A DNA stretch of 64,000 bases from Thermodesulfobacteriota bacterium (GCA_963675595.2 CAXXLZ010000002.1:3072001-3136000); one strand, 5' to 3'; positions 21,913-57,607 are shown, numbered from the stretch's first letter. Notes: generated from the letters alone by a model not told the origin. Numbers and translations are program-made.

Positions 21913-22099
21913 AAAAGCGGGTTACCCAGAGGTTGTATTCCGGCATGATGGACCGTGAGCCGTGGAAAGCATTCCATTGTGTCGGTGTGCCGGTTCGCGA
22001 CCAAGGAGCTTTCCGCCGGCGGACAACAGCCGGAAGAGAGTGAATGGCGTCCGCCCGGTCGAATACGGCCGGGAGCGGAGGTATCCGGAGGATCGGGAC

Positions 22100-39115: not shown

Positions 39116-39188
39116 AAGAATATACGAAAATCATCGTTCAACCTCGCTTCTCGCTTCCGAAATCCGCAGCCAAATCAGGGAGACGGAC

Positions 39189-40349: not shown

Positions 40350-40439
40350 TACCGAACAGGAATAAACGGCATACATGAATAATAGAAACGACAAAAACTC
40401 CATAAAAGTTTTTCTTACCATATTATTATGAGATAATTC

Positions 40440-41261
40440 ATGAAGCAGAAAAACTTCGTATCAAACTTTACCAAGATACATGACTATAATAACTCTACCA
40501 CATGTGTATCAAGCAAAAAACCTGGGATATATCGATTCACCATACCCTCTTTCATTGGCACGGGAGATACCAAAAAGAAAAGCCTCCATGTTATAGATTA
40601 CTATATAAAGAACTTTGATCCGGACGAAAATGGAGAAATCAATGGGCAAGTCATTGATTATGCCGGCCGGCTTTTGAATTTAAGAGATCGTTTAGAAGTG
40701 AGTCGATTGAGCAAGAGCAAGCTGATTTGCGAGACGCCGGCCGAATATGCCGGCCTGGTGTCGAAGCTCAACATACTCAGCGTACATATAAAAGCGGGTA
40801 ATACTCATTTTGAAAAGGAAGAGTATTACAGCGCGGAATACGAATATGACGGCGCATTGAAAATCGAACCAACGAACGTGGAAGCGAATCTTGGAAAAGG
40901 AAAAACCCTTTCCAAACTGAATCGATACGAAGAGGCTCGAGTCATATTCGATGAACTATCGAACAATCCGGAACTATACATAGAAGAACACAAACATTTG
41001 TTCAACGATTTCGGAATCAACCTCAGAAAAATGCAAATGTATGCGAAGGCTATTGAATCCTACCAAAGGGCTATTCGAGTTAATGCCTTCGACCCCCATC
41101 TTTATTACAATCTCGCGGTGGTTTATACGGAACTGAAAGAGATTGAAAATGCCGTCAGGCTGCTCAACTCGGCCATACAACTCAAGAGGAAGCTGGTCAA
41201 GGCGAGCTTTCAGGAAGCCGAATGCCTGCTAAGGTCGTTGAAGGAGAAATTACAACTTTGA
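40440..41261 (+). CDS. TPR repeat protein
   Basis: HKHLFNDFGINLRKMQMYAKAIESYQRAI...DPHLYYNLA; N-terminal IGTGDT motif; AT-rich gene. Confidence 0.8.
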   Translation: MKQKNFVSNFTKIHDYNNSTTCVSSKKPGIYRFTIPSFIGTGDTKKKSLHVIDYYIKNFDPDENGEINGQVIDYAGRLLNLRDRLEVSRLSKSKLICETPAEYAGLVSKLNILSVHIKAGNTHFEKEEYYSAEYEYDGALKIEPTNVEANLGKGKTLSKLNRYEEARVIFDELSNNPELYIEEHKHLFNDFGINLRKMQMYAKAIESYQRAIRVNAFDPHLYYNLAVVYTELKEIENAVRLLNSAIQLKRKLVKASFQEAECLLRSLKEKLQL

Positions 41262-41283
41262 GCCACAGCACAAGGGTGATGCA

Positions 41284-42219
41284 ATGAGTAATGGTGATAT
41301 CCTTTTGGATTCCGGCACGAACGAAATGGAAATGCTGACCGTAGTTGTGGGAGATCAGCAATTTGGAGTCAATGTAGCCAAGGTTGTATCCATTGAACAG
41401 TATGATACTGATTTGGTTACCGGCTTGCCCGTCAATCAGCCGGGACTCGAAGGAATGTTTTTCCATAGAGGCAAAACCATTCCATTACTGAATTTATCAG
41501 ATATTTTAGATATCGAGATCAGGAGTCAAGTTGATCGGGAGATCGTTATCGTAACGGAATTCAATAATTCAAAAAACAGCTTTAGAGTTCAAGGAGTCAC
41601 AAGGATTTATAGATTGTCATGGAATGACTTTGTCCCGTTGGACGGTGTTGTTGGAAATAGTCCTTGTTTTACCGGATCAATTAATATCGAGGGATCACAA
41701 ATATTGGTGCTTGATCTTGAACATATATTGGGACGTATTTTTCCAGATCAAATTATTCAATCTATCGATCAAACAAACATATCAAATAATGAAAAGTATG
41801 ACAGAAAAAATATAGATATTCTATTCGCCGAAGACTCAAAAACAATGCGAAAGGCTGTGGTATCCGCTTTAAATAAATCAGGATTCACAAATATCATTGA
41901 ATTCAGCAATGGAAAGTCGGCACTTGAATATATAGAGAGGGATTATTCCGGTCAAAATACACAAGCGAACAGAACCCCTGTTTTAATATCCGACATTGAA
42001 ATGCCTAAAATGGACGGGTTGACTCTATGTCGTGAGATAAAACGAAATCCAAAGCTAAATAATACCTATGTCATCATGTTTTCAAGCCTGATTAACGAAC
42101 AGATGGTATCTAAATGTAAGAGTGTAAAAGCTGATAACTATGTGAATAAGCCTGATACGAACCGGCTCATTTCCATTTTAGACAAGCAGTGCGGCAAACA
42201 AGGTTTTTTAACCTCTTGA
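41284..42219 (+). CDS. cheV: Chemotaxis coupling protein CheV (CheW + REC)
   Basis: ILLDSGTNEMEML, FGVNVAKV, IVTEFN, then AEDS, ISDIEMPKMDG, FSSL, NKP. Confidence 0.9.
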   Translation: MSNGDILLDSGTNEMEMLTVVVGDQQFGVNVAKVVSIEQYDTDLVTGLPVNQPGLEGMFFHRGKTIPLLNLSDILDIEIRSQVDREIVIVTEFNNSKNSFRVQGVTRIYRLSWNDFVPLDGVVGNSPCFTGSINIEGSQILVLDLEHILGRIFPDQIIQSIDQTNISNNEKYDRKNIDILFAEDSKTMRKAVVSALNKSGFTNIIEFSNGKSALEYIERDYSGQNTQANRTPVLISDIEMPKMDGLTLCREIKRNPKLNNTYVIMFSSLINEQMVSKCKSVKADNYVNKPDTNRLISILDKQCGKQGFLTS

Positions 42220-42222
42220 TTG

Positions 42223-42260
42223 GCTCCTCAGAGCCATCCACCCATCGGCTGGAGCTTTTT
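42223..42260 (+). terminator. Possible bulged rho-independent terminator after cheV
   Basis: GCTCC..AGCC-loop-GGCT-GGAGC followed by TTTTT. Confidence 0.4.
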
Positions 42261-42415
42261 GCTGTTTGATTTCGCATTTCATTTTCACCGGGTGCACTGG
42301 AATTGAAAGCCTGCCGAAGTCAACGGAGCTTTCCGGGAATTATAGGGCCATCTGTCTGAAAAAGCGACAGATGGCTCACGCGAAGTGAAGCTTACTGCTA
42401 TTTTGTCATAGAGAG

Positions 42416-45400
42416 ATGAATATGCATGATGAGACAGAGTCTTCTTCCGGAATTCGTCGTCCTGCGGAACAGGAACGTTCGGACGACGCCGCCGGTTGCA
42501 GATCGGAAGCCGAGGAGCAGGATTCCAATAAGTTGATGGAAGAGCTTCGGGTTCACCAGGCTGAACTGGAAATGCAAAACGAAGAACTGCGCTGCGCCCA
42601 GGAAGCGTTGGCGAGATCGCGAGACCGGTTCTACTCGCTTTTCCACCAAGCTCCCGTGGGTTATGTGGCGCTCGATGCTTCGGGCATGATCCAGGAAGCC
42701 AACGAGGCTTTCCTTCGAATGGCTGGAGCACCGCGGGAAGCGGTAATGGGGGCTTATTTCCATTCACTTCTGGAACAATCCCATGCCTCGGTGTTCAGAG
42801 GCCGGTTCAAGGCCCTCTTGAAGAAGCCTTTAGGCAAGGAGATGGAAGTCCGCCTTTTACGGCAAGGCAAACCTCTGTGGATCAGGATCGAAGCCTCCGA
42901 CGGCCAAGCCGTGGATCATCCGGCCGGTGGTGAGCCGCCGGCGTTGCTCCTGATACTCAGCGATATTACCGAGGAGAAGCTTGCGGAAGAAGCGCGTCGA
43001 GAGGAACAACGCAGGCTTAATTTCGTCATAGAAGGTTCGGGACTAGGGACATGGGAATGGAATCTCCAAACCAATGAAACCGTATTCAATGAAACCTGGG
43101 CGGAGATCATAGGATACGCCCTGGACGAGCTGACCCCCTACAATCTTGAGACCTGGGAACGACTGACGCACCCCGAGGACCTGGCACGCGCCCGGAAAGC
43201 GCTCGCAAGCTGCATTGCGGAGGAAACGTCGGACTACGAATGCGAACTGCGCATGAGGCACAAAGCCGGTCACTGGGTATGGATCCTGGACCGCGGTCGG
43301 GTCATGACATGGGACGACCACGGCAGGCCTCTCCTCATGTTCGGCACTCACAGCGACATCACTCCGCGCAAGCTCATGGAAGAGGGGCGCGAGCGACTGT
43401 TGGAGCGTGTGACGCAGGAAAAGAGGGCGCAGGAAACTCTTTTCGAAGCCGCCAAGACCGTGCTGGAAGGCGGCGATTTCGCCTCCACCGCGCGACGTAT
43501 CTTCGATGCCGCACGGACCCTTACCGGAGCCCAATCGGGTTACGTGGCCCTGCTCAGCGACGACGGCGAGGAAAATGAACTATTGTTCCTCGAAGCGGGA
43601 GGTTTGCCCTGCTTGGTGAACCCGGATTTGCCCATGCCTATCCGGGGTCTTCGCGCCGAAGCCTACAAAACGGGAAGAGTCGTGTCGGACAACGACTTCA
43701 TGCACTCCCGGTGGGCTTCCTTTATGCCTCCCGGGCACGTCGACCTTTGGAATGTGATGTTCGCCCCCTTGAACATCGAGGGGAAGACCGTCGGCATTAT
43801 GGGTCTGGCGAACAAGCCGGAGGATTTCAACGAGGACGACGTGGTTGCGGCCCGGGCATTCGGGCAATTGGCCGCCATCGCGCTGCAGAAGAACCGAAAT
43901 CTGGAGGCCTTGCGGGTCAGTGAACAGCGATTCCGCTCCTTTGTGGAAAACGCCAATGATATCGAGTACGCCCTTTCTCCGGAAGGTCTGTTCACCTACC
44001 TGTCCCCCAACTGGATCCACTTCGTGGGGGAACCGGCGGAAGCGGCTCTCGGCAGGTCCTTCGAGCCCTACGTGCATCCGGAAGACGTTCATCTGTGCAG
44101 GGAGTTTCTGCAGGAGGTTCTTTGCTCCGGAGAAAAGCAAAGCGGCGTCGTTTATCGCGTGCAACGAAGGGACGGCACTTGGCGGTGGCACTTTTCCAAC
44201 GGTTCGCCCTTATTCGATTCCCAAGGAACATTAACCGGTTATCTGGGGATCGCCCGCGACATCACGGAGATCAGACAGGCGGAGGAAACCCTCAAGGAGC
44301 GGGAAAGATTCCTGCGGGCCGTGTTGGAGACCACGGCCGACGGTTTCTTCGTCCTGGACAACCAAGGGCGGATCACGGAAGCCAACAGCGCCTACTGCTC
44401 CATGACGGGATACCGGCACGATGAAATCGTCGGCGGACGCCTGAGGGATATCGACGCGGATGAGTCCCCCGAAGAAACGGCGGATCGAATCAAGCGTGTT
44501 GCGTCAAGGGGCTCGGAAATCTTCGAGACCCGTCATCGACGCAAAGACGGAACGGTTTTTCCCGTGGAGATTTCCACCTCTTTTGTCCCGACTCATGGGG
44601 GAAGATTCGTATGTTTCTGTCGGGACCTGACCGAGCGCAAGGAAAACGAGCGCATCCTGAGACGACACAGCCACCTGCTGGAGAATTCCCCCAACGCGGT
44701 CTACGTCTCGGACGAGCAAGGCCGACTCGTTTACGCCAATACGTCGGCGGCCCGCCAAACCGGCTTTGCTTTTTCGGAGATCGTGGGTAAACATGTCTGG
44801 GACATCGATGCCTCGTTTACCGAATCCGAATATGTCCGGTTCCTCTCGCGAATGTCCTCCATGAACCCCGTGCGATTGAAAACCAAGCATCGTCGTCGGG
44901 ATGGAAGCTCGTTTCCCGTGGAAATCTCCATTTCCAAGCTGGTGCAGGAAGGATCGAACCTGCTTTGCGGAATCGCCGTGGACATCACGGAACGGGAGGC
45001 GCGCGAGGCGTCGCTGAGGCGCACCCAGTTCACGGTGGACCACGCGCCCATCGGCGTCTTCTGGGTCTCGCCGGAGGGAGAAATCATCTACGCCAACAAC
45101 AAGGCGGCCGATAGTCTCGGGTATGCGAAAAAAGAGCTGAGGGGGATGGAGTTTGAATGCATAGACCCGAACTTTCCCCTTCCCGAGAGCGAATCTCCCT
45201 GGAAGCTTCGCGAAAGGGAGGCTCTAATGGAATTCGAATCCATTCACCGCCGGAAGGACGGCACCGTTTTCCCGGTTTACGTGCACAGCCACCGCATCAG
45301 CTTCATGGGCGAGGAAATGCATGTCGTGGAAGTGCAGGACATCACGGAACGGAAAGAGCGAGAGGAACGCATCGCCGTGCAAGGCCGAATGCTCGACGAA

Positions 45401-46891
45401 GCACCCGCGTCCATCACCATTCACGGCGTTGACGGTCGATTTTTTTATGCCAACCAGGCGAGCTGTACGCTCCACGGTTACGAGAGTGAGCAGGAATTCC
45501 TGGCCGTCAATTTGCACAAGTTGGACGTGCCCGAGAGCGAGGCTTTGCTGGCTGAGCGCTTTCGTCTCATCATGGAAGAAGGGGAGGCGCGTTTCGAAGT
45601 CTGCCATTATCGCAAAGACGGATCGAGTTTTCCTTTGGAGGTATTGGCCAGAGCGATCCAATGGGAGGGCAAGCCGGCCGTACTCAGCATCGCCTCGGAC
45701 ATTTCGGACCGCAAAGCAGCCGAAGACGAGAGGGACAGGTTGCAGACCCAACTGATCCAGGCGCAGAAAATGGAATCCGTAGGCCGCTTGGCCGGCGGAG
45801 TGGCCCACGATTTCAACAACATGCTCGGCGTCATCCTGGGCCATACGGAAATGGCGTTGGATGAGACGGGGCCTGAGGAACCGATCTTTTCCGACCTGCA
45901 GGAAATCCACAAGGCCGCTCGGCGTTCCTCGGATCTGACGCGGCAGCTCCTGGCCTTTGCACGCAAACAGGTCATCAGTCCCAGAGTCCTCGACTTGAAC
46001 GAGACCGTGGAAGGCATGCTCAAGATGCTCAGGCGGCTCATCGGCGAGGACATCGAATTGGCCTGGCTGCCGGGAGGTCGCTTATGGAAAGTCAAGATGG
46101 ATCCTTCCCAGGTGGATCAAATACTGGCCAATCTGTGCGTCAATGCCAGGGACGCCATTGCGGGGCACGGCCGGGTCACCATCGAAACCATGAATATTAC
46201 GTTGGACGAGGCGCAATATGAGGGACGGGAGGGCCTTTTGCCCGGCGAATACGTTCTTCTGAGTGTGAGCGACAACGGATGCGGCATGGATCGGAATACC
46301 CTGTCCCATCTATTTGAACCCTTTTTCACCACCAAAGGGGTCGGTCAGGGCACAGGGCTGGGACTGGCCACGATCTACGGCATCGTCAAACAGAACGGAG
46401 GATACATCGACGTCGAAAGCGAGCAGGGCAAAGGAACAAGATTCTCCATCCATCTGCCGAGACACCTATCTCAGGCGGAAGCCGACTCCCATGGAAAGAT
46501 CAAGACTGCGGTGGAGCGCGGCAGTGAAACCATTCTATTGGTGGAGGACGAGGACGCCATGCTGAAGATGGCGGAGACCATGCTGAAAAGGCTAGGATAC
46601 CGCGTTTTGGCCTGCAGGGCGGCGATCGAAGCCGAGCGACTGGCGCTGGAACACATCGGCGCAATCCATCTGCTCATGACCGACGTGATCATGCCGGAAA
46701 TGAACGGCAGGGAACTGGCCGAACGGCTGACGTCTCGGTATCCGAACCTCCGATGCCTGTTTACGTCCGGGTACACGGCGGATGTCATCGGCCACCATGG
46801 AGTGCTTAACGAAGGCGTGCACTTCATACAGAAGCCGTTCTCCAGAAAGGACCTGGCGGCCAAGGTGCGGGAAGTCTTGGACCAAAAGTGA
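42416..46891 (+). CDS. Cytoplasmic hybrid histidine kinase (coil-PAS-PAS-GAF-multi-PAS-HisKA-HATPase-REC)
   Basis: ELEMQNEELR helix, repeated DITER PAS ends, GGVAHDFNNML, NLCVNARDA, GTGLGL, LMTDVIMP. No TM segments. Confidence 0.95.
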   Translation: MNMHDETESSSGIRRPAEQERSDDAAGCRSEAEEQDSNKLMEELRVHQAELEMQNEELRCAQEALARSRDRFYSLFHQAPVGYVALDASGMIQEANEAFLRMAGAPREAVMGAYFHSLLEQSHASVFRGRFKALLKKPLGKEMEVRLLRQGKPLWIRIEASDGQAVDHPAGGEPPALLLILSDITEEKLAEEARREEQRRLNFVIEGSGLGTWEWNLQTNETVFNETWAEIIGYALDELTPYNLETWERLTHPEDLARARKALASCIAEETSDYECELRMRHKAGHWVWILDRGRVMTWDDHGRPLLMFGTHSDITPRKLMEEGRERLLERVTQEKRAQETLFEAAKTVLEGGDFASTARRIFDAARTLTGAQSGYVALLSDDGEENELLFLEAGGLPCLVNPDLPMPIRGLRAEAYKTGRVVSDNDFMHSRWASFMPPGHVDLWNVMFAPLNIEGKTVGIMGLANKPEDFNEDDVVAARAFGQLAAIALQKNRNLEALRVSEQRFRSFVENANDIEYALSPEGLFTYLSPNWIHFVGEPAEAALGRSFEPYVHPEDVHLCREFLQEVLCSGEKQSGVVYRVQRRDGTWRWHFSNGSPLFDSQGTLTGYLGIARDITEIRQAEETLKERERFLRAVLETTADGFFVLDNQGRITEANSAYCSMTGYRHDEIVGGRLRDIDADESPEETADRIKRVASRGSEIFETRHRRKDGTVFPVEISTSFVPTHGGRFVCFCRDLTERKENERILRRHSHLLENSPNAVYVSDEQGRLVYANTSAARQTGFAFSEIVGKHVWDIDASFTESEYVRFLSRMSSMNPVRLKTKHRRRDGSSFPVEISISKLVQEGSNLLCGIAVDITEREAREASLRRTQFTVDHAPIGVFWVSPEGEIIYANNKAADSLGYAKKELRGMEFECIDPNFPLPESESPWKLREREALMEFESIHRRKDGTVFPVYVHSHRISFMGEEMHVVEVQDITERKEREERIAVQGRMLDEAPASITIHGVDGRFFYANQASCTLHGYESEQEFLAVNLHKLDVPESEALLAERFRLIMEEGEARFEVCHYRKDGSSFPLEVLARAIQWEGKPAVLSIASDISDRKAAEDERDRLQTQLIQAQKMESVGRLAGGVAHDFNNMLGVILGHTEMALDETGPEEPIFSDLQEIHKAARRSSDLTRQLLAFARKQVISPRVLDLNETVEGMLKMLRRLIGEDIELAWLPGGRLWKVKMDPSQVDQILANLCVNARDAIAGHGRVTIETMNITLDEAQYEGREGLLPGEYVLLSVSDNGCGMDRNTLSHLFEPFFTTKGVGQGTGLGLATIYGIVKQNGGYIDVESEQGKGTRFSIHLPRHLSQAEADSHGKIKTAVERGSETILLVEDEDAMLKMAETMLKRLGYRVLACRAAIEAERLALEHIGAIHLLMTDVIMPEMNGRELAERLTSRYPNLRCLFTSGYTADVIGHHGVLNEGVHFIQKPFSRKDLAAKVREVLDQK

Positions 46892-47002
46892 TGAAATCGT
46901 TTGTAAGTGTGTGCGCCGATAACCAGCCGCCTTCAAAGACACCTCGCAATCCCCGATCATGTTCGGCTTTTGCTCGTAGTTGACAACAGGAGAAACAACA
47001 AG

Positions 47003-47629
47003 ATGCGTGTGCCTGCAACCCAATTTCTCGATGCTCTGCTGTCCGTTGACCGTGTGAGGGCAAGACAAGTTTTGTCGGATTTGGAAAGCCACATTACACC
47101 ATTGGAACAAATAGATGGAATTATCGTGCCTTCACTGGATCGCTTGGGGCTGATGTGGGAAAAGGGCACGGCGGCGCTATCTCAAGTATATATGGCGGGA
47201 CGGATTTGCGAGGAACTGGTGGAGGAAATGCTGCCCCCCATGAGCCCGGACCGAAAAAGCCGGCCCAGAATGGCTGTCTCGGTATTGCACGACCATCATG
47301 GTTTGGGAAAACGGATCGTCTATTCCCTTGTCCGCGCCGGTGGATATGAGATTCTGGACTATGGACGAAGAACCGTGGATGAGCTTATTGAAATGATTGA
47401 AAGAGATCACATCGAAATTCTTCTTGTGTCGGTCCTGATGCTCCCGTCCGCCTTGAAGATCAGGGAGTTGAAACAACGCCTTGCCCGGAACCTGTCTTCA
47501 CAAACGCTCATTGTGGTTGGGGGTGCGCCTTTCAGGCTCGATCCCGATTTGGCTGCGGAGGTGGGTGCGGATGCAGTGGGTCGAGACGCATCCGACATCA
47601 TGGAGATCGCCCGGAAATTGGCCGACTAA
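47003..47629 (+). CDS. Cobalamin (corrinoid)-binding protein
   Basis: N-terminal cap helix (PSLDRLGLMWEKG), DHHGLG (DxHxxG), SVL, VGGAP: the full B12 base-off motif. RBS AGGAGA before ATG 47003. Confidence 0.9.
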   Translation: MRVPATQFLDALLSVDRVRARQVLSDLESHITPLEQIDGIIVPSLDRLGLMWEKGTAALSQVYMAGRICEELVEEMLPPMSPDRKSRPRMAVSVLHDHHGLGKRIVYSLVRAGGYEILDYGRRTVDELIEMIERDHIEILLVSVLMLPSALKIRELKQRLARNLSSQTLIVVGGAPFRLDPDLAAEVGADAVGRDASDIMEIARKLAD

Positions 47630-47649
47630 TCAGCGAGGACCGTATTGAG

Positions 47650-48693
47650 ATGACGTCATTGCAGCGCTTATTGACTGCTTTGCAGCATAGAGAGCCGGAT
47701 CGTGCGCCCTATATGATGCTTGTAACCATGCACGGCGCCAAGGCGTTGGGTATGCCTATCAGAGAATATTTTTCCAAGGCGGAGCATGTGGTTGAAGGAC
47801 AACTCCTGTTACGCCGGAAGTTCCGACACGATGCGATTTACGCCTTCTTCTATGCTGCATTGGAAATCGAGCCATGGGGCGGGGAGGTGGTATTTACGGA
47901 TGACGGTCCTCCAAACTCCGGAAGGCCCTTCCTGGAGAGTCCCGGGGAGATTAGAGGACTCAAACCTCCGCGCGTGAGCGACTCCGAAAGTTTGAACAAG
48001 GTCTTGAGGGCGATTACACTGCTCAAGCAATCGGTGGGGGAGGACGCACCCATTTTCGGCGTGGTGATGAGCCCGTTTTCCCTCCCCGTGATGCAGATGG
48101 GCTTCGAGAACTACCTGAACCTGATGTATGAGGACCGGTCGTCCTTTCATCATCTTATGGAAGCCAATCAGGAATTTTGCGCATCCTGGGCAAATGCGCA
48201 ATTGGAGGCCGGAGCTGCGGGAATCGTCTATTTCGACCCTGTCTCGTCCCCTCAAATGATTCCCCGAAGCCTGTACCCGGAACTTGCTCATCCCATCGCC
48301 AAAAGAATGATCGCCGAGATCAAAGGACCCGTGGCCACGCACTTCGCTTCGGGAAGTTGTCTACCCATTCTGGAAGACGTTATCACCACAGGGACCATTG
48401 GTGTGGGGGTCAGTGCGGAAGAAGACCTGGGTTCTTTGAAATCCGTGTCTCGAGGAAAAATCACTCTCATCGGCAATCTGAACGGATTGGAAATGCGTCG
48501 TTGGACTCCTCAGGAAGCGGAGATCAAAGTGAAGAACGCTATCGCCAAGGCGGCGCGCGGCGGCGGTTTCATTCTGGCCGACAATCATGGCGAGATTCCC
48601 TATCAAGTTCCGGACGAGACACTGTCCGCCATAGCCGATGCGGTTGATAAATGGGGTCACTACCCTTTGGAGTGGGTCGCAGTTGAAAAATAG
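47650..48693 (+). CDS. UroD/MtaA-CmuA-fold protein (methylcobamide methyltransferase-like)
   Basis: MTSLQRLLTAL..REPDRAP, VMSPFSL, AQLEAGA, YFDPVSS, LIGNL, GGFIL. Lacks the HemE RQAGR motif. Confidence 0.85.
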   Translation: MTSLQRLLTALQHREPDRAPYMMLVTMHGAKALGMPIREYFSKAEHVVEGQLLLRRKFRHDAIYAFFYAALEIEPWGGEVVFTDDGPPNSGRPFLESPGEIRGLKPPRVSDSESLNKVLRAITLLKQSVGEDAPIFGVVMSPFSLPVMQMGFENYLNLMYEDRSSFHHLMEANQEFCASWANAQLEAGAAGIVYFDPVSSPQMIPRSLYPELAHPIAKRMIAEIKGPVATHFASGSCLPILEDVITTGTIGVGVSAEEDLGSLKSVSRGKITLIGNLNGLEMRRWTPQEAEIKVKNAIAKAARGGGFILADNHGEIPYQVPDETLSAIADAVDKWGHYPLEWVAVEK

Positions 48694-51600
48694 TCGGTGC
48701 GGTATCCTCATTTGCAGGAGTTTACGCCGAGAGATTGAGGCGGTCCTTGCTGCGACTGGCTTGGACGGCGTCGAAGTGCTCACCTGTCCGTGCGATTGCA
48801 GTCGTCCCAACCGGGAGAAGGGACTTTTCGACGAAATACTGCAAACCATTCCGATTCGTTTCGATCATGTGCTCACTTTGTCGACTCCTTGTGAAAAATG
48901 TACGCGGGAAGAATCAAACACTCTCGTCCGAAATCATGTGGTCGGCATGCCCTGTTTTTTCGAGTTATTTCTTCCAGGCGGACTGGTGAGCAAGTACTTG
49001 TCGGAAGGAGCCTTGTTGCTCATTCCGGGTCTGGTTGAGAATTGGACCGACAACGGCGGATGCTCGGGACTTGAGCATGCTCGCGGCCGGAAGTTCTTCG
49101 CAGGGACGATTACACGCCTGGTGCTTCTGGACACCGGTACGGAGGAACAAAGCCAAAGGCGGCTGATCGAGCTTGCCGCCGCCATGGGTCTTCCGTGGGA
49201 AATTGTGCCGGTGGGTTTGGATATGCTCCGCTTGAGAATTGAACGGCAGATTGAAGCATGGCGCCTGCAAGACCTTGAGTCGGCGGCGCGGGCGACGGCA
49301 TCCAGGGAGCAGCGCCACGACTATGCCATGATCTTTGACATGATGAGTCGTTTTGCCGGTCTCACCAGCGAGGAACAATTGATACGGTCCGTTCTTGACC
49401 TGCTTGAAGCTCTTTTCGCACCCGGACTGTTGGCCTACATGCCGTTTCATGACGGAAGGCCGGGATCGGCGCTCACGCATCCTCTCGATGCCCATTGTTC
49501 GCCCGCTTGGATCGAGCAGGCGGCGAAGCTGCATGGAAGTTACTCCTGGTCCGATTCCGGGGCCGGATTCATTGTGCGCTTGGGCAGGGAGAACGAGACC
49601 TTGGGCATCCTGCTGGTGGAGCAGCTCGCTCTGCCCGACTACCGGGAAGATTATCTTAACTTGACCTTGACGATTCTCCCCGCGCTTGTCCTGGGCGTGC
49701 TGAACTCACGGCATATCGAGCAGCTGAGGCGTTCTCAGACCATGCTTCAGGAGTCGGAACGTCTGGCATATGCTACGCTGCACTCCATCGGCGAGGGTGT
49801 GATCAGCACGGACAGTTTAGGGCGCCTGACAAATCTGAACCCTTCGGCTGTAAAACTCACGGGATGGAGCGCCGGCGAGGCGCTGGGAAGACCTGTCAAC
49901 GAAATCCTGCATATCGTCAACGCTGAAACACGAGCCGGAACGGAAGACCCGGTGGAGAGAGCGTTGAACCTGGGTCTCACCCTTGGTCCGGCCGAACACA
50001 CGTTGCTCATCACGCGGGACGGAACGGAGCGACGGATATCATACAGTTGTGCACCCATCGAAGACCTGGACGGCAATATTGTCGGGTCCGTGCTTGTCTT
50101 CCGGGATATGACTTCGGAGATTGAGACGAAGAATGCCCTCAAAGCGAGCGAGGCTCAATTTCGCCTTCTGGCTGAGAACATGGTTGATGTCATTTGGACC
50201 CTGGATACATCCGGGCGATTCACCTACGTCAGTCCCTCCGTGGAGAAGCTGCGCGGCTACACGCCTCGGGAGGTGTTGTCCCAATCCATCGCAGAGGCGC
50301 TGACCCCCGCTTCGTTCAAAAAAGTGGAGGAAGCCTTGGCCGCAGTCATGTCGCAGTTGTCGAACGGGTCAAATCCCTCCGTACTCGACTTCGGCGCCTA
50401 CCAATTGGAACAGCCCCGCAAGGATGGATCCACTGTTTGGACTGAAGCGCTGGTGCGGCCGCTTTTTGATAAGCACGGCGACTTCAGCGGTTTCTTGGGC
50501 GTCAGCCGTGATATCACCGAACGCAAACGAGTTGAAGAGGAGCGTAACAAACTCCAGGCCGACCTCGAGCAAGCTCGGAAGCTCGAAGCAGTGGGTCGTC
50601 TGGCGGGCGGTATTGCACATGATTTCAATAACATGCTCGGAGTGATACTGGGAAATACGGAGCTGGCCTTCGACCAGGCGGAACCCGGAGAACCGCTGTT
50701 TTCCGATTTGCGCGAAATTCAAAAGGCTGCCCAGCGCTCCGCGGATCTCACACGGCAACTCCTGGCCTTCGCCCGAAAGCAGACCGTTACTCCCAAGGCG
50801 CTGGATTTGAATGAAGCCTTGGAAGGCATGCTCAAGATGCTCAGGCGACTCATCGGCGAGGACATCGACTTGGCTTGGCTGCCGGGGAATCGTTTGTGGA
50901 AAGTTAAAATGGATCCGGCTCAACTGGATCAAGTCCTGGCCAATCTGTGCGTCAATGCCAGGGACGCCATTTCCGGGCCCGGCCGGATCACCATCGAAAC
51001 CATGAATATTACGTTGGACGAGGCCCGATATGAAGGACGGGCGGGCGTTTTGCCCGGCGAATACGTTCTCTTGAGTGTGAGCGACAACGGATGCGGCATG
51101 GATCGGCAGACCCTGGCCCATTTGTTTGAACCGTTTTTCACCACCAAAGGGGTCGGCCGGGGTACTGGTCTTGGATTGGCCACGATCTACGGCATCGTCA
51201 GACAGAACGGCGGATTCATCGACGTCGAGAGCAAGCCTGGCGGAGGAGCAACGTTTTCCATTTATTTTCCGAGACACGAACCTCGGGCGGAAGAATCCTC
51301 CCATGCCGAAACCGGGAGTCCGACGGAGCGCGGCAACGAGACCATTCTGCTGGTGGAGGACGAAGAAGCCATGCGGAACATGGCCAAGACCATGCTGGAA
51401 AGGCTGGGATACCGCGTCTTGCCCTGCAGAACGTCCGTGGAAGCGGAGCGATCGGCGCTGGAACACGCCGACGAAATCCATCTGCTCATGACCGACGTGG
51501 TCATGCCGGACATGAGCGGCAGGGAACTGGCCGAACGGCTGACGTCTCGCCATCCGAACATGAGAAGCCTTTTCACATCCGGGTACACGGCGGATGTCAT

Positions 51601-51727
51601 CGGTCGCCATGGGGTGCTTAACGAAGGCGTGCACTTCATACAGAAACCGTTCTCCAAAAGGGACCTGGCGGCCAAGGTGCGGGAAGCCCTTTCGGCAAGA
51701 GCCGGTACGGGCCGACGAGACGATTAA
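48683..51727 (+). CDS. Hybrid histidine kinase with an N-terminal Cys-rich DUF1638-like domain, GAF-like region, 2 PAS, HisKA, HATPase and REC
   Basis: TTG start overlapping the upstream stop; ILICRSLRREI, CPCDC, CFFELF, LLIPGLVENW, RLVLLDTG, WEIVPVGLD (DUF1638-like); AHDFNNML; C-terminal REC. Confidence 0.88.
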   Translation: MKNSRCGILICRSLRREIEAVLAATGLDGVEVLTCPCDCSRPNREKGLFDEILQTIPIRFDHVLTLSTPCEKCTREESNTLVRNHVVGMPCFFELFLPGGLVSKYLSEGALLLIPGLVENWTDNGGCSGLEHARGRKFFAGTITRLVLLDTGTEEQSQRRLIELAAAMGLPWEIVPVGLDMLRLRIERQIEAWRLQDLESAARATASREQRHDYAMIFDMMSRFAGLTSEEQLIRSVLDLLEALFAPGLLAYMPFHDGRPGSALTHPLDAHCSPAWIEQAAKLHGSYSWSDSGAGFIVRLGRENETLGILLVEQLALPDYREDYLNLTLTILPALVLGVLNSRHIEQLRRSQTMLQESERLAYATLHSIGEGVISTDSLGRLTNLNPSAVKLTGWSAGEALGRPVNEILHIVNAETRAGTEDPVERALNLGLTLGPAEHTLLITRDGTERRISYSCAPIEDLDGNIVGSVLVFRDMTSEIETKNALKASEAQFRLLAENMVDVIWTLDTSGRFTYVSPSVEKLRGYTPREVLSQSIAEALTPASFKKVEEALAAVMSQLSNGSNPSVLDFGAYQLEQPRKDGSTVWTEALVRPLFDKHGDFSGFLGVSRDITERKRVEEERNKLQADLEQARKLEAVGRLAGGIAHDFNNMLGVILGNTELAFDQAEPGEPLFSDLREIQKAAQRSADLTRQLLAFARKQTVTPKALDLNEALEGMLKMLRRLIGEDIDLAWLPGNRLWKVKMDPAQLDQVLANLCVNARDAISGPGRITIETMNITLDEARYEGRAGVLPGEYVLLSVSDNGCGMDRQTLAHLFEPFFTTKGVGRGTGLGLATIYGIVRQNGGFIDVESKPGGGATFSIYFPRHEPRAEESSHAETGSPTERGNETILLVEDEEAMRNMAKTMLERLGYRVLPCRTSVEAERSALEHADEIHLLMTDVVMPDMSGRELAERLTSRHPNMRSLFTSGYTADVIGRHGVLNEGVHFIQKPFSKRDLAAKVREALSARAGTGRRDD

Positions 51728-51874
51728 AGGTCTTGAGCAGAGTTTGAATTCCCAACAAGTGCCGTGTTGAGCGCACCAATCTTAAAAATTGCCGATGCCG
51801 AAGGCGCATGAAGCAACGAAAAACCGTGATTGCAAGCCAAGTTAGATCGCAGGTGTCACGTTGAGGATTCGATC

Positions 51875-54800
51875 ATGAAGGAAACCAAGCCCGGAGAAGA
51901 GAAACCCGTTAACGCCGGGCAGACGGGGATCAGTGAAACGTCGACCTCGGGAACCGGCCGGCGTCTTTCGGATGACTCGGATGAACGCCTCCACGAACTT
52001 CGCGTTTACCAGGCTGAACTGGAAATGCAAAACGAAGAGCTGCGCGCCGCGCAGGAAGCTCTTGCCGAGTCCCGAGACCGGTTCTCCACCCTGTTTCACC
52101 GAGCCCCGGTAGGATACGTGGTGCTCGATGAGGTCGGTCTGATTCTGGAGGCCAACGAGACTTTCGCCCGGATGGTCCATTGTCCCATGGATCGCATAAG
52201 AGGGCGAGCCTTCGCCGCATTCCTGGAGGAAGAGCACTCCAGGACCTTTCAGTCCCGCTTCAGGGCGTTGTTCCGAAACCCCAAGGGCAAACGCATGGAG
52301 GTGGAACTCCGTTCAGTAGAACGGTCACTTTCCGTGCAACTGGACGCCTCTTATGCTGATTCGATCAAGGCGCCTAGTTCGAGCAAGGCTTCCGCCCTGC
52401 TCCTCACCGTCAGCGACATATCGGATCGTAAACGGGCCGAAGAGGATCGGCGGCATTCCCTTTCCTTGCTGGAGGCCGCGTTGGAGTCCACCGCCGACGG
52501 CATCCTTATCGTGGCCTCCGACGGAACATGGTCCGGTTTCAATCAAAAGTTCATCGACATGTGGCGGATTCCGGAGCCGGTCCTCAAGTCCGGGGATGAT
52601 CGCAGGGCCTTGGAACATGTGCTCGACGTTGTGGCGGATCCCGACGGATTCCTGGACACGGTGAAGGAAATCCATGGGGACTCCCATCGGGTATCGTTGG
52701 ACACGGTCACCATGAAAGACGGCCGCATTCTTGAGCGATACTCCCAACCACATCGCGTGGGTGATGAAACCGTTGGTCGGGTCTGGAGTTTCAGGGACAC
52801 CACAGACCACAAAAGAGACCGAAAGCGGCTGGAAGAAGCCTTGAGAGAGGCCAGACGGCATCAGCGGGAAACACAAGGCCTCCTGGACGCCTCGCACGCC
52901 GTCCTGGAATGTCGCAGTTTCGAGGAATCCGCCCGCCGGATCTTTGATGCCTGCCGCGAAGCCACGGGAGCCCCTTCCGGGTACATAGCGTTATTGAGTG
53001 AAGACGGGGAGGAAAACGAACTGGTGTTCCTGGAATCCGGAGGCCTGCCCTGCGCCGTGGATCCGGCGCTTCCCATGCCGGTGCGAGGCCTTCGGGCCGA
53101 GGCGTATAACCGCGCTGAAGTCGTGTACGACAACGACTTCATGAACAGCAAATGGGTTCGCTACATGCCCCCCGGCCATATGAACATGCGGAACGTACTC
53201 TTCGCGCCCATCGTCGGCGACGGAAAAGCCGTGGGAGTCATCGGGCTGGCCAACAAGCCCGATGACTTCACCCCGGAAGACGTACGCATCGCGCGGGCTT
53301 TGGGCGACATGGCGGCCATAGCGCTGCGCCGAAGCGAACAGTTGATGGAGACGATCCTCGACACCATTCCGGCACCGGTATTCTACAAAGACCTTCAAGG
53401 CGTCTATCTGGGGTGTAATCGGGCTTTCCAGAAGCTGTTCGGCCTGAGCAAGGATGACATCGTGGGTCGCACCGCCTTGGATATTGCTCCCCCCGAACTC
53501 GCTCGGCGCTACCACCAAGCAGATCTGGCATTGATGGAACACGGTGAAATCCAGGTTTACGAAACGGAAGCCGAGAATGCCCTTGGAGAGAGGCGACAGG
53601 TGGTCTTCCACAAGGCCCCCTTTCGTGGACCGGGCGGCGCCGTCATGGGCATCGTCGGCGCCATGCTGGACATAACCGAGCGACAACAGGCCGAGCGCCG
53701 GCTCAAGAACGCCCATGAACAAACCACGGCCCTCATGGATTCGGTGCAGGCCGGAATCGTTCTGGTTCAGTCTGAAGACCGGGTCATCGTGGAAGCCAAT
53801 CCCGCCGCCGCCCGACTGATGAACGTCCCGATGGAAGAGCTGATCGGAAATAACGCCAAGAAGTACTTATGCCCGAGAGAAGTGGACGAATGCCCGGTTT
53901 TGGATTTAGGACAGGAACTGGAGGACTCGGAACGAACCCTCTACACACCCGACGGCCGGACCATACCCATTCTCAAGACCGTGACCCGTATTAAGCTCAA
54001 CGGCCAAGAACATCTGCTCGAATCCTTCGTGGATATTTCGAGCCTGAAACAAGCGGAGGAAGAACTGCGGGCGGGCGAAGCACGAATGCGAGCCATCACG
54101 GAATCGGCCCAGGACGGGATCGTGATGATGAATCCCGACGGGAATATCTCTTTCTGGAACACCGCGGCGGAGCGAATATTTGGCTATGGCCGAGATGAAG
54201 TGGTGGGAGTCGACCTGCATAGTCTTCTGGCGCCGAGGCGTTACCTTTCCAAACATCGGAAGGGCTTCTCTCGTTTTCGGGCGACCGGCCTCGGCTCCGC
54301 CGTGGGAAAGACCCTGGAATTGCAGGCCCGGCACAAACACGGGCAGGAAGTGTCCGTGGAACTGTCCCTCTCGGCGATCCGGCAGACCGACGGCTGGCAT
54401 GCGGTGGGCGTCATAAGGGATATCACCGAGCGTAAACGGGCCGAAGAGGAACTCTTGGAAATCAACCGGCAACTCGAAGACGCCACCGCACGCGCCAACG
54501 CAATGGCCCTCCAGGCCGAAATGGCCAATATCGCCAAGAGCGAATTTTTGGCCAACATGAGTCACGAAATTCGCACCCCCATGAACGGGGTGATCGGCAT
54601 GACGGGTTTGTTGCTGGATACCGGGCTGACGGAGGAACAGCGCAGATATGCCGAAATCGTGAAATCCAGCGGGGAGTCCCTGCTGTCCATCATCAACGAC
54701 ATCCTGGATTTTTCGAAAATCGAAGCCGGCAAGCTGGACCTGGAAGTGTTGGATTTTGATCTAAGGGAACTCTTGGACGATTTCTCCGCGACCATGGCTT

Positions 54801-56488
54801 TGCGTGCCCATGAGAAGGGGTTGGAATGGCTTTGTAGCGCCGATCCGGAGGTTCCTTCGGCACTGCGGGGCGACCCCGGGCGTCTCAGACAGATTCTGAC
54901 CAACTTGGCGGGCAACGCGGTCAAGTTCACCCAAACCGGCGAGGTGGCCGTACGGGTGTCGTTGGAATCGGAAACAGCGGACGATACGGTACTCAAGATT
55001 TCGGTACGCGATACGGGTATCGGCATACCTGAAAAGAAGCTGACGCGGCTGTTCGGCAAGTTTTTCCAAGTGGACGCCTCCACGACCCGGCGATTCGGCG
55101 GCACGGGTCTGGGCCTGGCCATCTCGAAACAACTGGCCGAAATGATGGGCGGGGAGGTCGGAGTCGACAGTCGAGAGGGACAAGGGTCCGAGTTCAGGTT
55201 CACCGTTCGTCTGGGCAAACAGCCTCCGAGGGAATGCCCGGAGTCGGGCTCGACGCAACATTTTGAAGACGTGCGCGTGCTGGTTGTGGACGACAACGCG
55301 ACCAACAGGGAGGTGTTGTCCAAGCGTCTTTCCTTCTGGGGAATGCGCCCGCAGGAGGCCCAAGACGGTCCGTCGGCCCTCGAGGCCCTGTCGCGAGGGA
55401 CGGATGAGGACGACCCCTTTCGGGTGGCGGTGATCGACATGCAGATGCCGGGCATGGACGGCGAGGATTTGGCCCGAGCAGTCAAAGGCGACCCGCGAAT
55501 TTCCGCAACCCCCATGGTGATGTTGACGTCCTTGGGCGTTCGTTCGGACGGCTTCCGTCCGGCCGAAACGGGCATCGTGGCGTGCCTGAACAAACCCACG
55601 CGAGATCGGGAGCTTTTCGGCGTGCTCTCCAAAATTCTTGCAGGTCGGGATCCGGATGGCGCTCTGGAGGACGAAGCCGCGGGGACCACTTCAAAAAGGG
55701 AAGCGAGTATCCCATTTTCCTTTTCAAATAAGCGCGTTCTGCTCGCCGAGGACAACCTCACCAATCAGCAGGTGGCTCTCGCGGTACTCAAAAAGTTCGG
55801 AATTCAAGCCGACGTCGTGTCGAACGGCGCAGAGGCTGTTCGAGCACTGGGAAAAACCGCCTACGACCTGGTCCTCATGGACGTGCAGATGCCTGTGATG
55901 GACGGGTTGGAAGCCGCTCGCAGGATCCGAAAACCGCGCTCCGCGGTTCTCAATCATGAGATTCCCATTATCGCAATGACGGCTCGCGCCTTGAAAGGCG
56001 ATCGTGAGAAATGCCTGGAATCCGGCATGAACGACTACCTCCCCAAACCGATCGAGATCGAGGGCCTGGCCGAAGTACTTCACAGGTGGCTGGGCATGGA
56101 AGAGGAAGCTCGGGAGAAGCGGGAACCGGAAGAAGACAAGGCGCTTGAACAGGATCACGAAGTGTTCGATCGAAAGGCTTTGTTGCAGCGACTGATGAAT
56201 GATGAAGAGCTGATGAAGACGATAGTGGGTGTATTTCTATCGGATATGCCTGTTCAGATGGCATTGTTGAAGGCTTCTTTGGACCGAGGCGATCCTTCAG
56301 AGTGTGAACGCTTGGCCCACAGCATCAAGGGGGCATCCGCCGGCGTCGGAGGGGAGGGATTTCGAGCAGCGGCTCTTCAAATGGAGCAAGCCTCCAGATC
56401 GGGAAATCTAAACGAGGTAAAGGCGCTTTATCCCGAGCTGGAGATGCGGTTCGAGCAGCTGAAGGCGGCAATGGAACATGCGGAATAA
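51875..56488 (+). CDS. Unorthodox hybrid kinase (coil-PAS-PAS-GAF-PAS x3-HisKA-HATPase-REC-REC-HPt)
   Basis: ELEMQNEELR, FLANMSHEIRTPMNG, GDPGRLRQIL, FGGTGLGL, two REC domains, HPt motif LAHSIKGAS. Confidence 0.95.
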   Translation: MKETKPGEEKPVNAGQTGISETSTSGTGRRLSDDSDERLHELRVYQAELEMQNEELRAAQEALAESRDRFSTLFHRAPVGYVVLDEVGLILEANETFARMVHCPMDRIRGRAFAAFLEEEHSRTFQSRFRALFRNPKGKRMEVELRSVERSLSVQLDASYADSIKAPSSSKASALLLTVSDISDRKRAEEDRRHSLSLLEAALESTADGILIVASDGTWSGFNQKFIDMWRIPEPVLKSGDDRRALEHVLDVVADPDGFLDTVKEIHGDSHRVSLDTVTMKDGRILERYSQPHRVGDETVGRVWSFRDTTDHKRDRKRLEEALREARRHQRETQGLLDASHAVLECRSFEESARRIFDACREATGAPSGYIALLSEDGEENELVFLESGGLPCAVDPALPMPVRGLRAEAYNRAEVVYDNDFMNSKWVRYMPPGHMNMRNVLFAPIVGDGKAVGVIGLANKPDDFTPEDVRIARALGDMAAIALRRSEQLMETILDTIPAPVFYKDLQGVYLGCNRAFQKLFGLSKDDIVGRTALDIAPPELARRYHQADLALMEHGEIQVYETEAENALGERRQVVFHKAPFRGPGGAVMGIVGAMLDITERQQAERRLKNAHEQTTALMDSVQAGIVLVQSEDRVIVEANPAAARLMNVPMEELIGNNAKKYLCPREVDECPVLDLGQELEDSERTLYTPDGRTIPILKTVTRIKLNGQEHLLESFVDISSLKQAEEELRAGEARMRAITESAQDGIVMMNPDGNISFWNTAAERIFGYGRDEVVGVDLHSLLAPRRYLSKHRKGFSRFRATGLGSAVGKTLELQARHKHGQEVSVELSLSAIRQTDGWHAVGVIRDITERKRAEEELLEINRQLEDATARANAMALQAEMANIAKSEFLANMSHEIRTPMNGVIGMTGLLLDTGLTEEQRRYAEIVKSSGESLLSIINDILDFSKIEAGKLDLEVLDFDLRELLDDFSATMALRAHEKGLEWLCSADPEVPSALRGDPGRLRQILTNLAGNAVKFTQTGEVAVRVSLESETADDTVLKISVRDTGIGIPEKKLTRLFGKFFQVDASTTRRFGGTGLGLAISKQLAEMMGGEVGVDSREGQGSEFRFTVRLGKQPPRECPESGSTQHFEDVRVLVVDDNATNREVLSKRLSFWGMRPQEAQDGPSALEALSRGTDEDDPFRVAVIDMQMPGMDGEDLARAVKGDPRISATPMVMLTSLGVRSDGFRPAETGIVACLNKPTRDRELFGVLSKILAGRDPDGALEDEAAGTTSKREASIPFSFSNKRVLLAEDNLTNQQVALAVLKKFGIQADVVSNGAEAVRALGKTAYDLVLMDVQMPVMDGLEAARRIRKPRSAVLNHEIPIIAMTARALKGDREKCLESGMNDYLPKPIEIEGLAEVLHRWLGMEEEAREKREPEEDKALEQDHEVFDRKALLQRLMNDEELMKTIVGVFLSDMPVQMALLKASLDRGDPSECERLAHSIKGASAGVGGEGFRAAALQMEQASRSGNLNEVKALYPELEMRFEQLKAAMEHAE

Positions 56489-56515
56489 CGCAGTGAAAAC
56501 CTCACGAGGATTATC

Positions 56516-57442
56516 GTGAAAATACTGATTGCCGAAGACGACGCCACCACTCGTTTGATGTTGGCCGCCCTGTTGCGCAAGGGGGGATACGACGTGGTGG
56601 AAACGACCAACGGTGCGGAAGCCTGGGACGTCCTACAGAAACCGGATGCGCCCAAGATGGCCGTTCTGGATTGGATGATGCCGGTGATGGACGGCGTGGA
56701 CGTTTGCCGTCGCCTTCGAGCGATGCCTACCACGGACCCGCCGTACCTGATCCTGCTGACTTCGCGGGATGATGAAAACAGCATTGTGGAGGGGCTTGAC
56801 GCAGGCGCAAATGATTATCTGACCAAACCGTTCCGGAGCGAGGAACTGCGAGCCCGTCTCGGGGTAGGCGGGCGGATGCTGCAACTGCAGGCCGACCTGA
56901 ACGGAGCGAAAGCCGCGCTAGCCCACGAGGCCATGCACGATGCGTTGACCGGTGTCTTCAACCGCCGAGCGATTCTCGAAGGGCTTTCCAGAGAACACTC
57001 GCGCGCGGAGAGACGGGGTTCAACCTTGAGCATCGGCCTTTGCGATATCGATCATTTCAAGCAGGTCAACGACTGCTACGGACACCTGGTGGGGGACGAA
57101 GTGCTGAAGATTGTGGCGGGGGTTATTCGGTCCAACCTCCGAAGGTACGATCTGCTCGGCAGGTACGGCGGGGAGGAATTCCTGGTTGTGGTGCCCTATT
57201 CCAGTGGTACGGCCGACGAATCAATCTATGAACGGTTGAGAAAGGCGGTGGCTCAGACGCAGATCGCCGTGGGAGAGGACGGTTTGCGTGTTGCCGTCAG
57301 CGTGGGCGTAGCTGGAGGTACTGGCGGAACCTCGCCCGATCAGCTGCTGGCGGAAGCGGATTCAGCACTGTATCGAGCCAAAAACGCGGGACGGAACCGC
57401 GTCGTTTACGCGGACCCGAAGAACCGTCCACCGAATTCGTGA
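56516..57442 (+). CDS. REC-GGDEF diguanylate cyclase
   Basis: LIAEDD, LDWMMP, DALTGVFNRR, DIDHFKQVND, I-site RRYD, GGEEF. Confidence 0.95.
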   Translation: MKILIAEDDATTRLMLAALLRKGGYDVVETTNGAEAWDVLQKPDAPKMAVLDWMMPVMDGVDVCRRLRAMPTTDPPYLILLTSRDDENSIVEGLDAGANDYLTKPFRSEELRARLGVGGRMLQLQADLNGAKAALAHEAMHDALTGVFNRRAILEGLSREHSRAERRGSTLSIGLCDIDHFKQVNDCYGHLVGDEVLKIVAGVIRSNLRRYDLLGRYGGEEFLVVVPYSSGTADESIYERLRKAVAQTQIAVGEDGLRVAVSVGVAGGTGGTSPDQLLAEADSALYRAKNAGRNRVVYADPKNRPPNS

Positions 57443-57607
57443 CGGGCGATGGGTTGGGGCGTCCGTTTTCCTTCCGGGTACGGAGTTGGGGCCCTCTGGA
57501 AATGAGGCGCCGAACAGGCGATCGGTGGGACCTGACCCGATTATATACGGGGGCTCGGCAAATTCTCGGGTATTCGTATTAAAAATTTCCACTTGAGCCG
57601 CAAAAAC

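Follow-up and report, generated by a model that had tools for sequence, protein, structure and literature searches.

The stretch of DNA analysed here, 64,000 nucleotides from a Thermodesulfobacteriota bacterium (GCA_963675595.2 CAXXLZ010000002.1:3072001-3136000, called the window below), carries at positions 47003 to 51727 three consecutive genes that encode a corrinoid protein (cor), a protein of the URO-D/MtaA fold (uro) and a hybrid sensor histidine kinase. These three genes very probably constitute a cassette that is dedicated to some form of sensing. Each part comes from a known superfamily, and we have found no published description of their assembly. The features of the cassette, counted from the first letter of the window, are as follows.

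47003..47629, + strand: corrinoid (cobamide-binding) protein, 208 amino acids, with a B12-binding_2 cap and a B12-binding Rossmann domain (Pfam; start and ribosome-binding site read from the sequence)
47650..48693, + strand: URO-D/MtaA-fold protein (uro), 347 amino acids, of a distinct cassette-specific lineage (Pfam URO-D)
48683..51727, + strand: hybrid sensor histidine kinase, 1014 amino acids, with the order DUF1638, GAF-like, PAS, PAS, HisKA, HATPase_c, receiver (REC)
48683..49282, + strand: DUF1638 domain, kinase residues 1-200 (homologues, alignment and AlphaFold model)
49325..49717, + strand: GAF-like domain, about residues 215-345, followed by a long helix (model and Foldseek)
49778..50530, + strand: two PAS domains (Pfam PAS_8 at 381-435 and PAS/PAS_4/PAS_9 at 507-631, in the numbering of P0003)
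50594..51682, + strand: transmitter, consisting of HisKA, HATPase_c and REC (Pfam)

A preliminary description of this locus, made from the sequence alone, had pointed to the tight linkage of the three genes, and our reading of their starts and stops bears this out. The corrinoid gene begins with the ATG at 47003, with AGGAG 11 nucleotides 5' of it, and ends with the stop codon at 47627-47629. After a gap of 20 nucleotides the uro gene runs from the ATG at 47650 to the TAG at 48691-48693, and the kinase gene, starting with a TTG at 48683 that has GGAG upstream, overlaps the end of uro by 11 nucleotides. The kinase start is identical in the database copy of the protein (P0004, 1014 amino acids) and fits the N-termini of the homologues, which follow the pattern M-x-x-K-L-C. 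Pfam recognised the B12-binding domains, URO-D and the PAS, HisKA, HATPase_c and REC series, and the matches to HisKA (8.5e-7), HATPase_c (1.5e-21) and Response_reg (8.7e-16) mark the third protein as a hybrid two-component kinase.

The conservation of this arrangement was assessed on loci found through the N-terminal DUF1638-GAF module of the kinase: three from species-representative genomes, 44 from metagenomes and one from a genome of the same class. Sequences from the window and two loci served to build hidden Markov models of the module and of its two partners, cor and uro; these models were searched over all six frames, and de-duplication at 90% identity gave 41 module-seeded clusters, of which two are cut at the 5' end and 39 could be assessed. 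The uro gene lies directly upstream of the module, on the same strand, in 33 of the 39, and cor precedes uro in every one of the 30 clusters with at least 1.7 kb of upstream sequence. The junctions between uro and the module range from -43 to +188 nucleotides, with a single one of 564; in most cases the two genes overlap or lie a few nucleotides apart. The hosts known by name are Desulfatitalea alkaliphila, an Aminicenantes metagenome-assembled genome (MAG) and a Dongiaceae MAG. As for what follows the module, 25 of 38 proteins carry HATPase_c, paired with HisKA or HisKA_2/HWE and in some cases accompanied by REC and Hpt or by additional PAS or GAF domains; seven have GGDEF, and the remaining six are cut short or have no output domain. 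The triad is thus kept across phyla while its outputs (histidine kinase, hybrid kinase and GGDEF) are interchanged, which is the outcome by which the preliminary description had proposed to test its reading. The module is itself widespread, with 1083 representatives at 50% identity that match its profile at an E-value of 1e-30 or better; among the best 150 of these the match starts within the first few residues in nearly all, in proteins of 359 to 1403 amino acids. It was found in only one of 60 sampled relatives from the same family, order or class, so its distribution is patchy and vertical conservation is unusable as an argument.

The corrinoid protein matches Pfam B12-binding_2 (2.4e-9) and B12-binding (5.1e-15), and its relatives in the PDB are 1y80, the trimethylamine corrinoid protein 7xcn and the MtmC structure 3ezx. 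The complete DxHxxG, SxL and GG motifs noted earlier in the window's copy proved to be invariant in 26 of 26 cassette corrinoid proteins, which are 40-52% identical to it. The general NCBIfam model for methyltransferase-cognate corrinoid proteins, TIGR02370, gives 69.6 bits against a cut-off of 215.3, and the protein falls far under every cut-off of the MtbC, MtgC and MtaC models. One cysteine of the cap domain, C69 ('GRICEEL', in the region of 47207), is conserved in at least 90% of the 26 proteins and has no counterpart in the aligned sequence of 1y80; it could be an upper-face ligand or a redox-active residue.

The second protein matches Pfam URO-D at 3.4e-58, and its best match in the PDB is MtaA (4ay7, E-value 9.8e-16, residues 5-334), to which it is nearer than to the HemE structures (5e-9 or weaker). 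It nevertheless stays well below the NCBIfam cut-offs: 103.2 bits against 235.4 for mtaA_cmuA (TIGR01463), 93 against 400 for MtaA, 73 against 600 for MtbA and 61.5 against 302.95 for hemE (TIGR01464). In the alignment to 4ay7, the 'HI-CG' of MtaA becomes 'HFASG' in uro and the 'GCG' becomes 'NHG'. In MtaA, the His-x-Cys ... Cys residues bind the zinc that activates the thiol. The replacement residues in uro (His, Ala-Ser-Gly and Asp-Asn-His-Gly-Glu) are conserved in at least 90% of 32 cassette proteins, and the nearby cysteine of the window's protein is not conserved among them. On the other hand, uro keeps the MtaA-type motifs FDPVSSP and GNL, and with about 130 positions conserved in at least 90% of the 32 sequences it is the best-conserved part of the cassette, a degree of constraint that looks like that of an enzyme. 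Its identity to 31 cassette orthologues is 52-63%, whereas 12 paralogues from its own genome share 19-25% with it and a thirteenth gave no match. These comparisons place it in an old, separate and highly conserved lineage, and it is not a recent copy of a metabolic MtaA. The preliminary description had proposed that the corrinoid/URO-D pair was repurposed as a receptor. A receptor role now appears well supported, by the conservation of the triad and the swapping of its outputs; the idea of repurposing suits the age and separateness of the uro lineage, and the missing MtaA cysteines, much less well.

The uro family comprises 3860 clusters at 90% identity with an E-value of 1e-60 or better, among which the MAG labels include Aminicenantes, Planctomycetes, Chloroflexi, Anaerolineae and Thermodesulfovibrio, and database names go no further than 'uroporphyrinogen decarboxylase (family protein)' or, given automatically, MtbA. 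A search seeded with uro found the lineage in four of 400 further genomes from the phylum: as a full triad in two, as a pair without the module in one (L073, below) and, in the last, as a uro (47% identity) that stands alone. Two triad genomes are complete and small (2.6-2.7 Mb), and the URO-D-family proteins of each are limited to the cassette uro and one other member, which matches URO-D at an E-value of 1e-127 or better (Pfam) and which, to judge by that score, we assume to be the true decarboxylase. The cassette uro would then be the sole MtaA-like gene in these two genomes, so that there it belongs to no wider methylotrophic set.

The input end of the kinase had been described as a cysteine-rich, DUF1638-like domain, and the cysteine motifs then quoted (CGILIC, CPCDC, CEKC, PCFF, together with LLDTG) are indeed present in the translation. 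Pfam DUF1638 (PF07796) itself is below threshold on the window's kinase (E-value 1.7e-3, 18.7 bits against a gathering cut-off of 27, profile positions 78-158; 21.7 bits in the genome search). However, a search with residues 1-360 found 11 homologues, 31-40% identical and with differing C-termini, and all 11 carry PF07796; 26 of 30 full-length module proteins reach at least 27 bits. In addition, residues 1-200 align with four stand-alone DUF1638 proteins of the same genome, with which they have TPGW and LLDTG in common. The assignment of this region as a DUF1638 domain, made through its relatives, is thus confirmed at the level of sequence comparison. All of these proteins share a pattern of C / C-or-H / C / C, with one cysteine after strand 1, the second position after strand 2 (Cys in the kinase-fused domains, His in the stand-alone proteins), a cysteine after strand 3 and the last before the next helix. 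In the window's kinase, C11, C39 and C70 coincide with conserved cysteine columns of the family, whereas C91 misses the fourth by one residue on its N-terminal side. The AlphaFold model of this half is a confident one, with a predicted local distance difference test (pLDDT) value of 84.4 and a predicted template modelling score (pTM) of 0.82, and it places the conserved Cys/His positions at or just after strand ends. Foldseek and a wide VIA-align search found no specific structural relative for it; the matches were to two-lobed, Rossmann-like proteins of a generic kind (LacI and periplasmic binding proteins, glutamate racemase and, with a Z of 8.7, creatinine amidohydrolase), and a profile search of the PDB sequences with DUF1638 gave nothing meaningful.

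For the second half of the module, from about residue 215 to 345, Pfam reports no GAF family; Foldseek matched its model (pLDDT 74.6) to the GAF domain of KdpD (4y2f; TM-score 0.68 on the target, root-mean-square deviation 3.6 over 139 columns), as well as to the GAF domain 3cit, to 5w10 and to phosphodiesterase GAF domains. Its conserved motifs are FAP, SGxGF and YLN. A second link between the DUF1638 and URO-D families occurs outside the window in the same genome (L017:8922-10854, G000:C2:2492921-2494853), where a stand-alone DUF1638 gene adjoins a URO-D-family paralogue that is 19% identical to the cassette uro; no corrinoid gene adjoins this pair.

A corrinoid protein with a cap and a Rossmann domain bearing DxHxxG, encoded beside a protein of the URO-D superfamily, is what one finds in the MtaC/MtaA, MtbC/MtbA, MttC and OdmA/OdmB/VdmB systems; the O-demethylases OdmB and VdmB are counted in this superfamily in the relevant passages of PMC10418091. 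The cassette departs from these methylotrophic systems in lacking a substrate-specific methyltransferase, a methyltransferase for folate or coenzyme M and an activase, and its third gene encodes a signalling protein. A further parallel is offered by the type 1 mlp clusters, which a preprint by Kountz and Balskus (PMC10418091), in the passages concerned, describes as widespread in anaerobes; they combine MtaA-like and corrinoid proteins, again with no folate methyltransferase, and are proposed there to act on methyl-sulfur or methyl-selenium compounds. They differ in having two or three Mlps and a Ram/RACE activase and, as far as these passages go, no signalling protein; the words 'histidine kinase' occur 0 times in the text of PMC10418091, and a literature search on DUF1638 did not bring up this preprint. 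In the mec cassette for anaerobic dichloromethane catabolism (10.1101/2021.08.30.458270, in part), genes for a corrinoid protein and MtaA/CmuA-type methyltransferases do lie beside that of a histidine kinase, MecA. However, MecA has a PocR input, regulates a ten-gene catabolic cassette that has its own activase and, in the portion of that source concerned, has no DUF1638-GAF module. Given these differences in architecture, as far as the two sources describe them, we rejected both the mec cassette and the mlp clusters as prior descriptions of the present one.

With respect to DUF1638 itself, passages of PMC5764234 report that in Phaeobacter inhibens a DUF1638 gene (PGA1_c13340) neighbors the one that encodes the B12-binding part of a split methionine synthase, that the bacterium requires it to make methionine and that it co-occurs with a RamA-like activase; its authors, in those passages, gave it no specific function. 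A later paper (PMC12478193, in the part concerned) makes it, by prediction, part of reductive recharging. The cassette domain resembles such stand-alone proteins (PGA1_c13340, and SPO2162 of Ruegeria pomeroyi) in its family, its link to a B12-binding protein and its Cys/His pattern, and differs from them in being fused to a GAF-like domain and a kinase. Cobalamin-binding domains are also used for signalling in CarH, AerR and the photocobilins, some of them fused to GGDEF according to the portions of that literature at hand, but there the B12 domain is within the regulator, which responds to light and works with no methyltransferase-like partner. So far as the available passages and listings show, the literature on DUF1638/PF07796 describes no sensor, and that on corrinoid proteins together with kinase, GAF, GGDEF, O-demethylase or URO-D yielded only different systems, namely the mec cassette, the mlp clusters and the B12 photoreceptors.

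The interpretation that we favor, with a probability of roughly one half, is that the cassette is a sensor of corrinoid state, in which the cobalt carried by cor would have its state set by uro and read by the DUF1638-GAF module. The corrinoid protein would hold a cobamide, with the histidine of DxHxxG as its lower ligand, and uro would act on this cobamide, most likely by taking a methyl group from the cobalt to a small molecule or the other way round. The resulting cobalt state (methyl-Co(III), Co(I) or Co(II)) would report a chemical or redox condition and would be received by the N-terminal module of the kinase, of which DUF1638 would be the part contacting the corrinoid protein and the GAF-like domain, with its long helix, the part relaying the signal to the output. 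In the window that output, PAS-PAS-HisKA-HATPase-REC, would feed the surrounding array of multiple kinases, Hpt and REC-GGDEF. Cobalt that became oxidised would be reduced again by an activase of the RACo/RamA type that the genome encodes, acting in trans; homologues of RACo/RamA occur in all five of the other genomes with a cassette that were tested, and five matches lie in the genome of the window. A more specific version can be put forward tentatively: the protein-bound cobamide would be the primary receptor in a new class of signal inputs, an MtaA-like enzyme free of the zinc cysteines would write its methyl or redox state, and DUF1638 would be a general reader which, when fused to a special GAF domain, drives histidine kinases or diguanylate cyclases in numerous phyla of anaerobes. 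Were DUF1638 such a reader, this would also explain why a split methionine synthase needs a stand-alone DUF1638, and a domain that has a mutant phenotype and no known role would gain a testable function.

If the cassette does sense corrinoid state, organometallic B12 chemistry, in the form of a methyl-cobalt or cobalt-redox state, would be the first step of two-component and cyclic di-GMP signalling; we know of no characterised sensor that begins in this way. The cassette would also represent a compact modular input that has already been swapped between outputs in nature, and it belongs to a large family in sediment and subsurface anaerobes, for which methylated compounds and redox shifts matter.

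A number of observations nevertheless weigh against corrinoid-state sensing. We infer every physical step of it, from binding, methyl transfer and its direction to what the signal is and how the kinase responds. The predicted complex of the DUF1638-GAF module with the corrinoid protein scored 0.13 and 0.15, where the reference mark is 0.32, and counts neither for nor against this reading. Since uro does not have MtaA's two cysteines, its chemistry cannot be taken over from that of MtaA. A cycle through Co(I) is costly for a sensor, and in the scanned loci no activase lies within the cassette or in the flanking sequence. In the window's kinase, DUF1638 deviates at positions that are nearly invariant in the family (leucine for Y111 and for W117, and the fourth cysteine, C91, shifted by one), divergences that account for its weak Pfam score, and this copy may have drifted.

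The variation among loci is also awkward for it. In six of the 39 assessable clusters the module has no adjoining uro, one of them keeping cor alone, and these exceptions lie mostly among other kinase and receiver genes. Conversely, in seven de-duplicated clusters the protein behind cor and uro begins with the GAF-like half and lacks DUF1638 (two of these are PAS-GGDEF proteins, and two are about 230 amino acids long with no recognised output), so DUF1638 is not an indispensable reader in cis. In one genome of the phylum (L073:3992-7465), cor-uro is followed by the gene for a small multihaem cytochrome c and then by another cor, and a DUF1638-GAF protein is absent. Judged by these sequences, the constant parts of the functional unit are cor, uro and the GAF-like domain, with DUF1638 usually fused to it and the output exchangeable.

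The main rival to corrinoid-state sensing would give the GAF-like domain the leading part: cor and uro would make or consume a small molecule that it binds, and DUF1638 would merely maintain cor, a role like that proposed for it with the split methionine synthase. Although we consider such enzyme-coupled ligand sensing unlikely, all other explanations (thiol methylation, cobamide supply, light and chance adjacency) rank lower. It accords with the constancy of the GAF-like domain in the signalling protein, even in the seven loci that have cor and uro without DUF1638, with the fold match found by Foldseek to a domain that is the classic small-molecule pocket, with the enzyme-like conservation of uro and with a DUF1638 phenotype in methionine synthesis (PMC5764234, passages). 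What it leaves unexplained is the fusion of DUF1638 to GAF in most members, the match beginning at the N-terminus in nearly all of the best 150 of 1083, and it can offer no candidate ligand. It is less probable again that the cassette gauges the supply of cobamide itself, by distinguishing the apo from the holo form of the corrinoid protein, with uro and DUF1638 as factors for loading or handling it instead of methyltransferases. The invariant B12 ligand motifs, the loss of the MtaA cysteines from uro, the absence of a methyl-donor enzyme from the cassette and, as far as the source describes it, the undefined role of DUF1638 in B12-dependent methionine synthesis would all fit. The retention of FDPVSSP and GNL in uro, with its very high conservation, is instead what one expects of a catalyst. 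Moreover, B12 supply is normally sensed by riboswitches.

The preliminary description had also envisaged that the methylation or redox state of the cobalt might be transferred to cysteines or a metal center in the input domain of the kinase. Ada provides the precedent for such a relay, as it signals through methylation of a cysteine. Here uro would move the methyl group from methyl-cor to a metal-thiolate cysteine of DUF1638, S-methylation would switch the kinase and, a supposition that we regard as equally improbable, the metal site lost from uro would be supplied by DUF1638, its protein substrate. The four C / C-or-H / C / C positions, modelled at or after strand ends, would suit a metal site, and uro does lack the two cysteines that align to those of MtaA. 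This proposal, to which we give little credence, is weakened by the seven de-duplicated loci that retain cor and uro without any DUF1638. Stand-alone, non-signalling DUF1638 proteins keep the Cys/His pattern as well, so the site is more likely a structural or general cofactor site; S-methylation would furthermore be irreversible without a demethylase, and the cassette has none. Light is a still more improbable signal. Photolysis of a bound alkyl-cobamide, read by the module, would recall CarH, AerR and the photocobilins; the passages of PMC11796333 concerned show that B12-binding domains do act as photoreceptors, GGDEF-fused in the photocobilins, and give as the light signature GxxW, EH, GxxH and GxxxP. 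The GxxW element is present and invariant in the 26 cassette corrinoid proteins (G49 and W52), and 8j2y is among the structure matches of the window's copy. The 'EH' element, however, is absent from 26 of 26, which have V/I/L-Y where it would lie, the positions being placed by eye from the spacing in CarH. The NCBIfam model of CarH gives 29.2 bits against a cut-off of 400, a conserved URO-D partner would be needless for a light sensor, and the named hosts belong to lineages of anaerobes. Finally, the neighborhood could be due to chance, the corrinoid/URO-D pair working for a metabolic methyltransferase whose gene lies elsewhere. Systems of this sort abound in the genome, with 18 URO-D matches (about 15 genes), five to RACo and four to MttB (one of these with an in-frame TAG), and the L073 genome has the pair without the module. 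It seems hardly credible, though, that chance would keep the gene order in 33 of 39 loci from different phyla, with the genes overlapping or a few nucleotides apart, or that a metabolic uro would be only 19-25% identical to the metabolic paralogues and be the sole MtaA-like gene in two small complete genomes.

Two loci outside the window may be mentioned here. In the window's genome, the region from L008 (G000:C2:115627-118962) to C2:130451 has an MttB-family gene with one in-frame TAG beside corrinoid, URO-D-family and RACo genes, and it looks like a pyrrolysine-type trimethylamine methyltransferase cluster. In a metagenome locus (L055:1147-6669), cor, uro and a GAF-only protein follow, on the same strand, a MEDS-domain protein and a PAS hybrid kinase.

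Within the window, the cassette is flanked by further kinases.

42416..46891, + strand: PAS/GAF hybrid histidine kinase, 1491 amino acids, ending 111 nucleotides before the corrinoid gene
51830..57442, + strand: GAF/PAS hybrid kinase with two REC domains and Hpt, followed by a REC-GGDEF response regulator

The purely signalling surroundings that had been noted earlier hold for the whole of 31.6-64 kb, where Pfam finds signalling genes exclusively: a CheB-CheR-PAS fusion, a methyl-accepting chemotaxis protein, REC-TPR and CheW-REC proteins, three further giant PAS/GAF hybrid kinases and REC-GGDEF. Nor was the preliminary description contradicted in finding no substrate methyltransferase, RACo/RamA activase or C1-pathway family, as there is none among the window's open reading frames of at least 200 amino acids that have a Pfam match; several frames had none. 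The C-terminal 500 amino acids of the cassette kinase (50156-51727) are 66% identical to the end of the upstream kinase (45434-46891) and 45% identical to the end (61103-63004) of an 1803-amino-acid kinase at 57593-63004. The transmitters of the three kinases are local duplications that carry different inputs, and the cassette-specific input therefore sits on a locally duplicated, shared output. It is likely that the hybrid kinase and REC-GGDEF protein at 51830..57442 share a phosphorelay with the cassette kinase. A scan of 38000-57600 for promoters and terminators gave counts at or below the shuffled expectation, and an operon boundary is therefore not drawable.

Other parts of the window deserve brief mention. 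The G+C content drops to 0.41 at 40001-42000, against about 0.55 on either side; this stretch, which spans the gene of a TPR protein and the CheW-REC gene, may be an acquired insert inside the signalling array. About 23 kb from the cassette, at 20836-24386, a delta-aminolevulinate dehydratase gene lies between two radical-SAM genes, one with a SPASM domain; these genes are tetrapyrrole-related. A DDE-family transposase-like open reading frame (29905-31410) adjoins the 1114-amino-acid CheB-CheR fusion with PAS domains (31629-34973).

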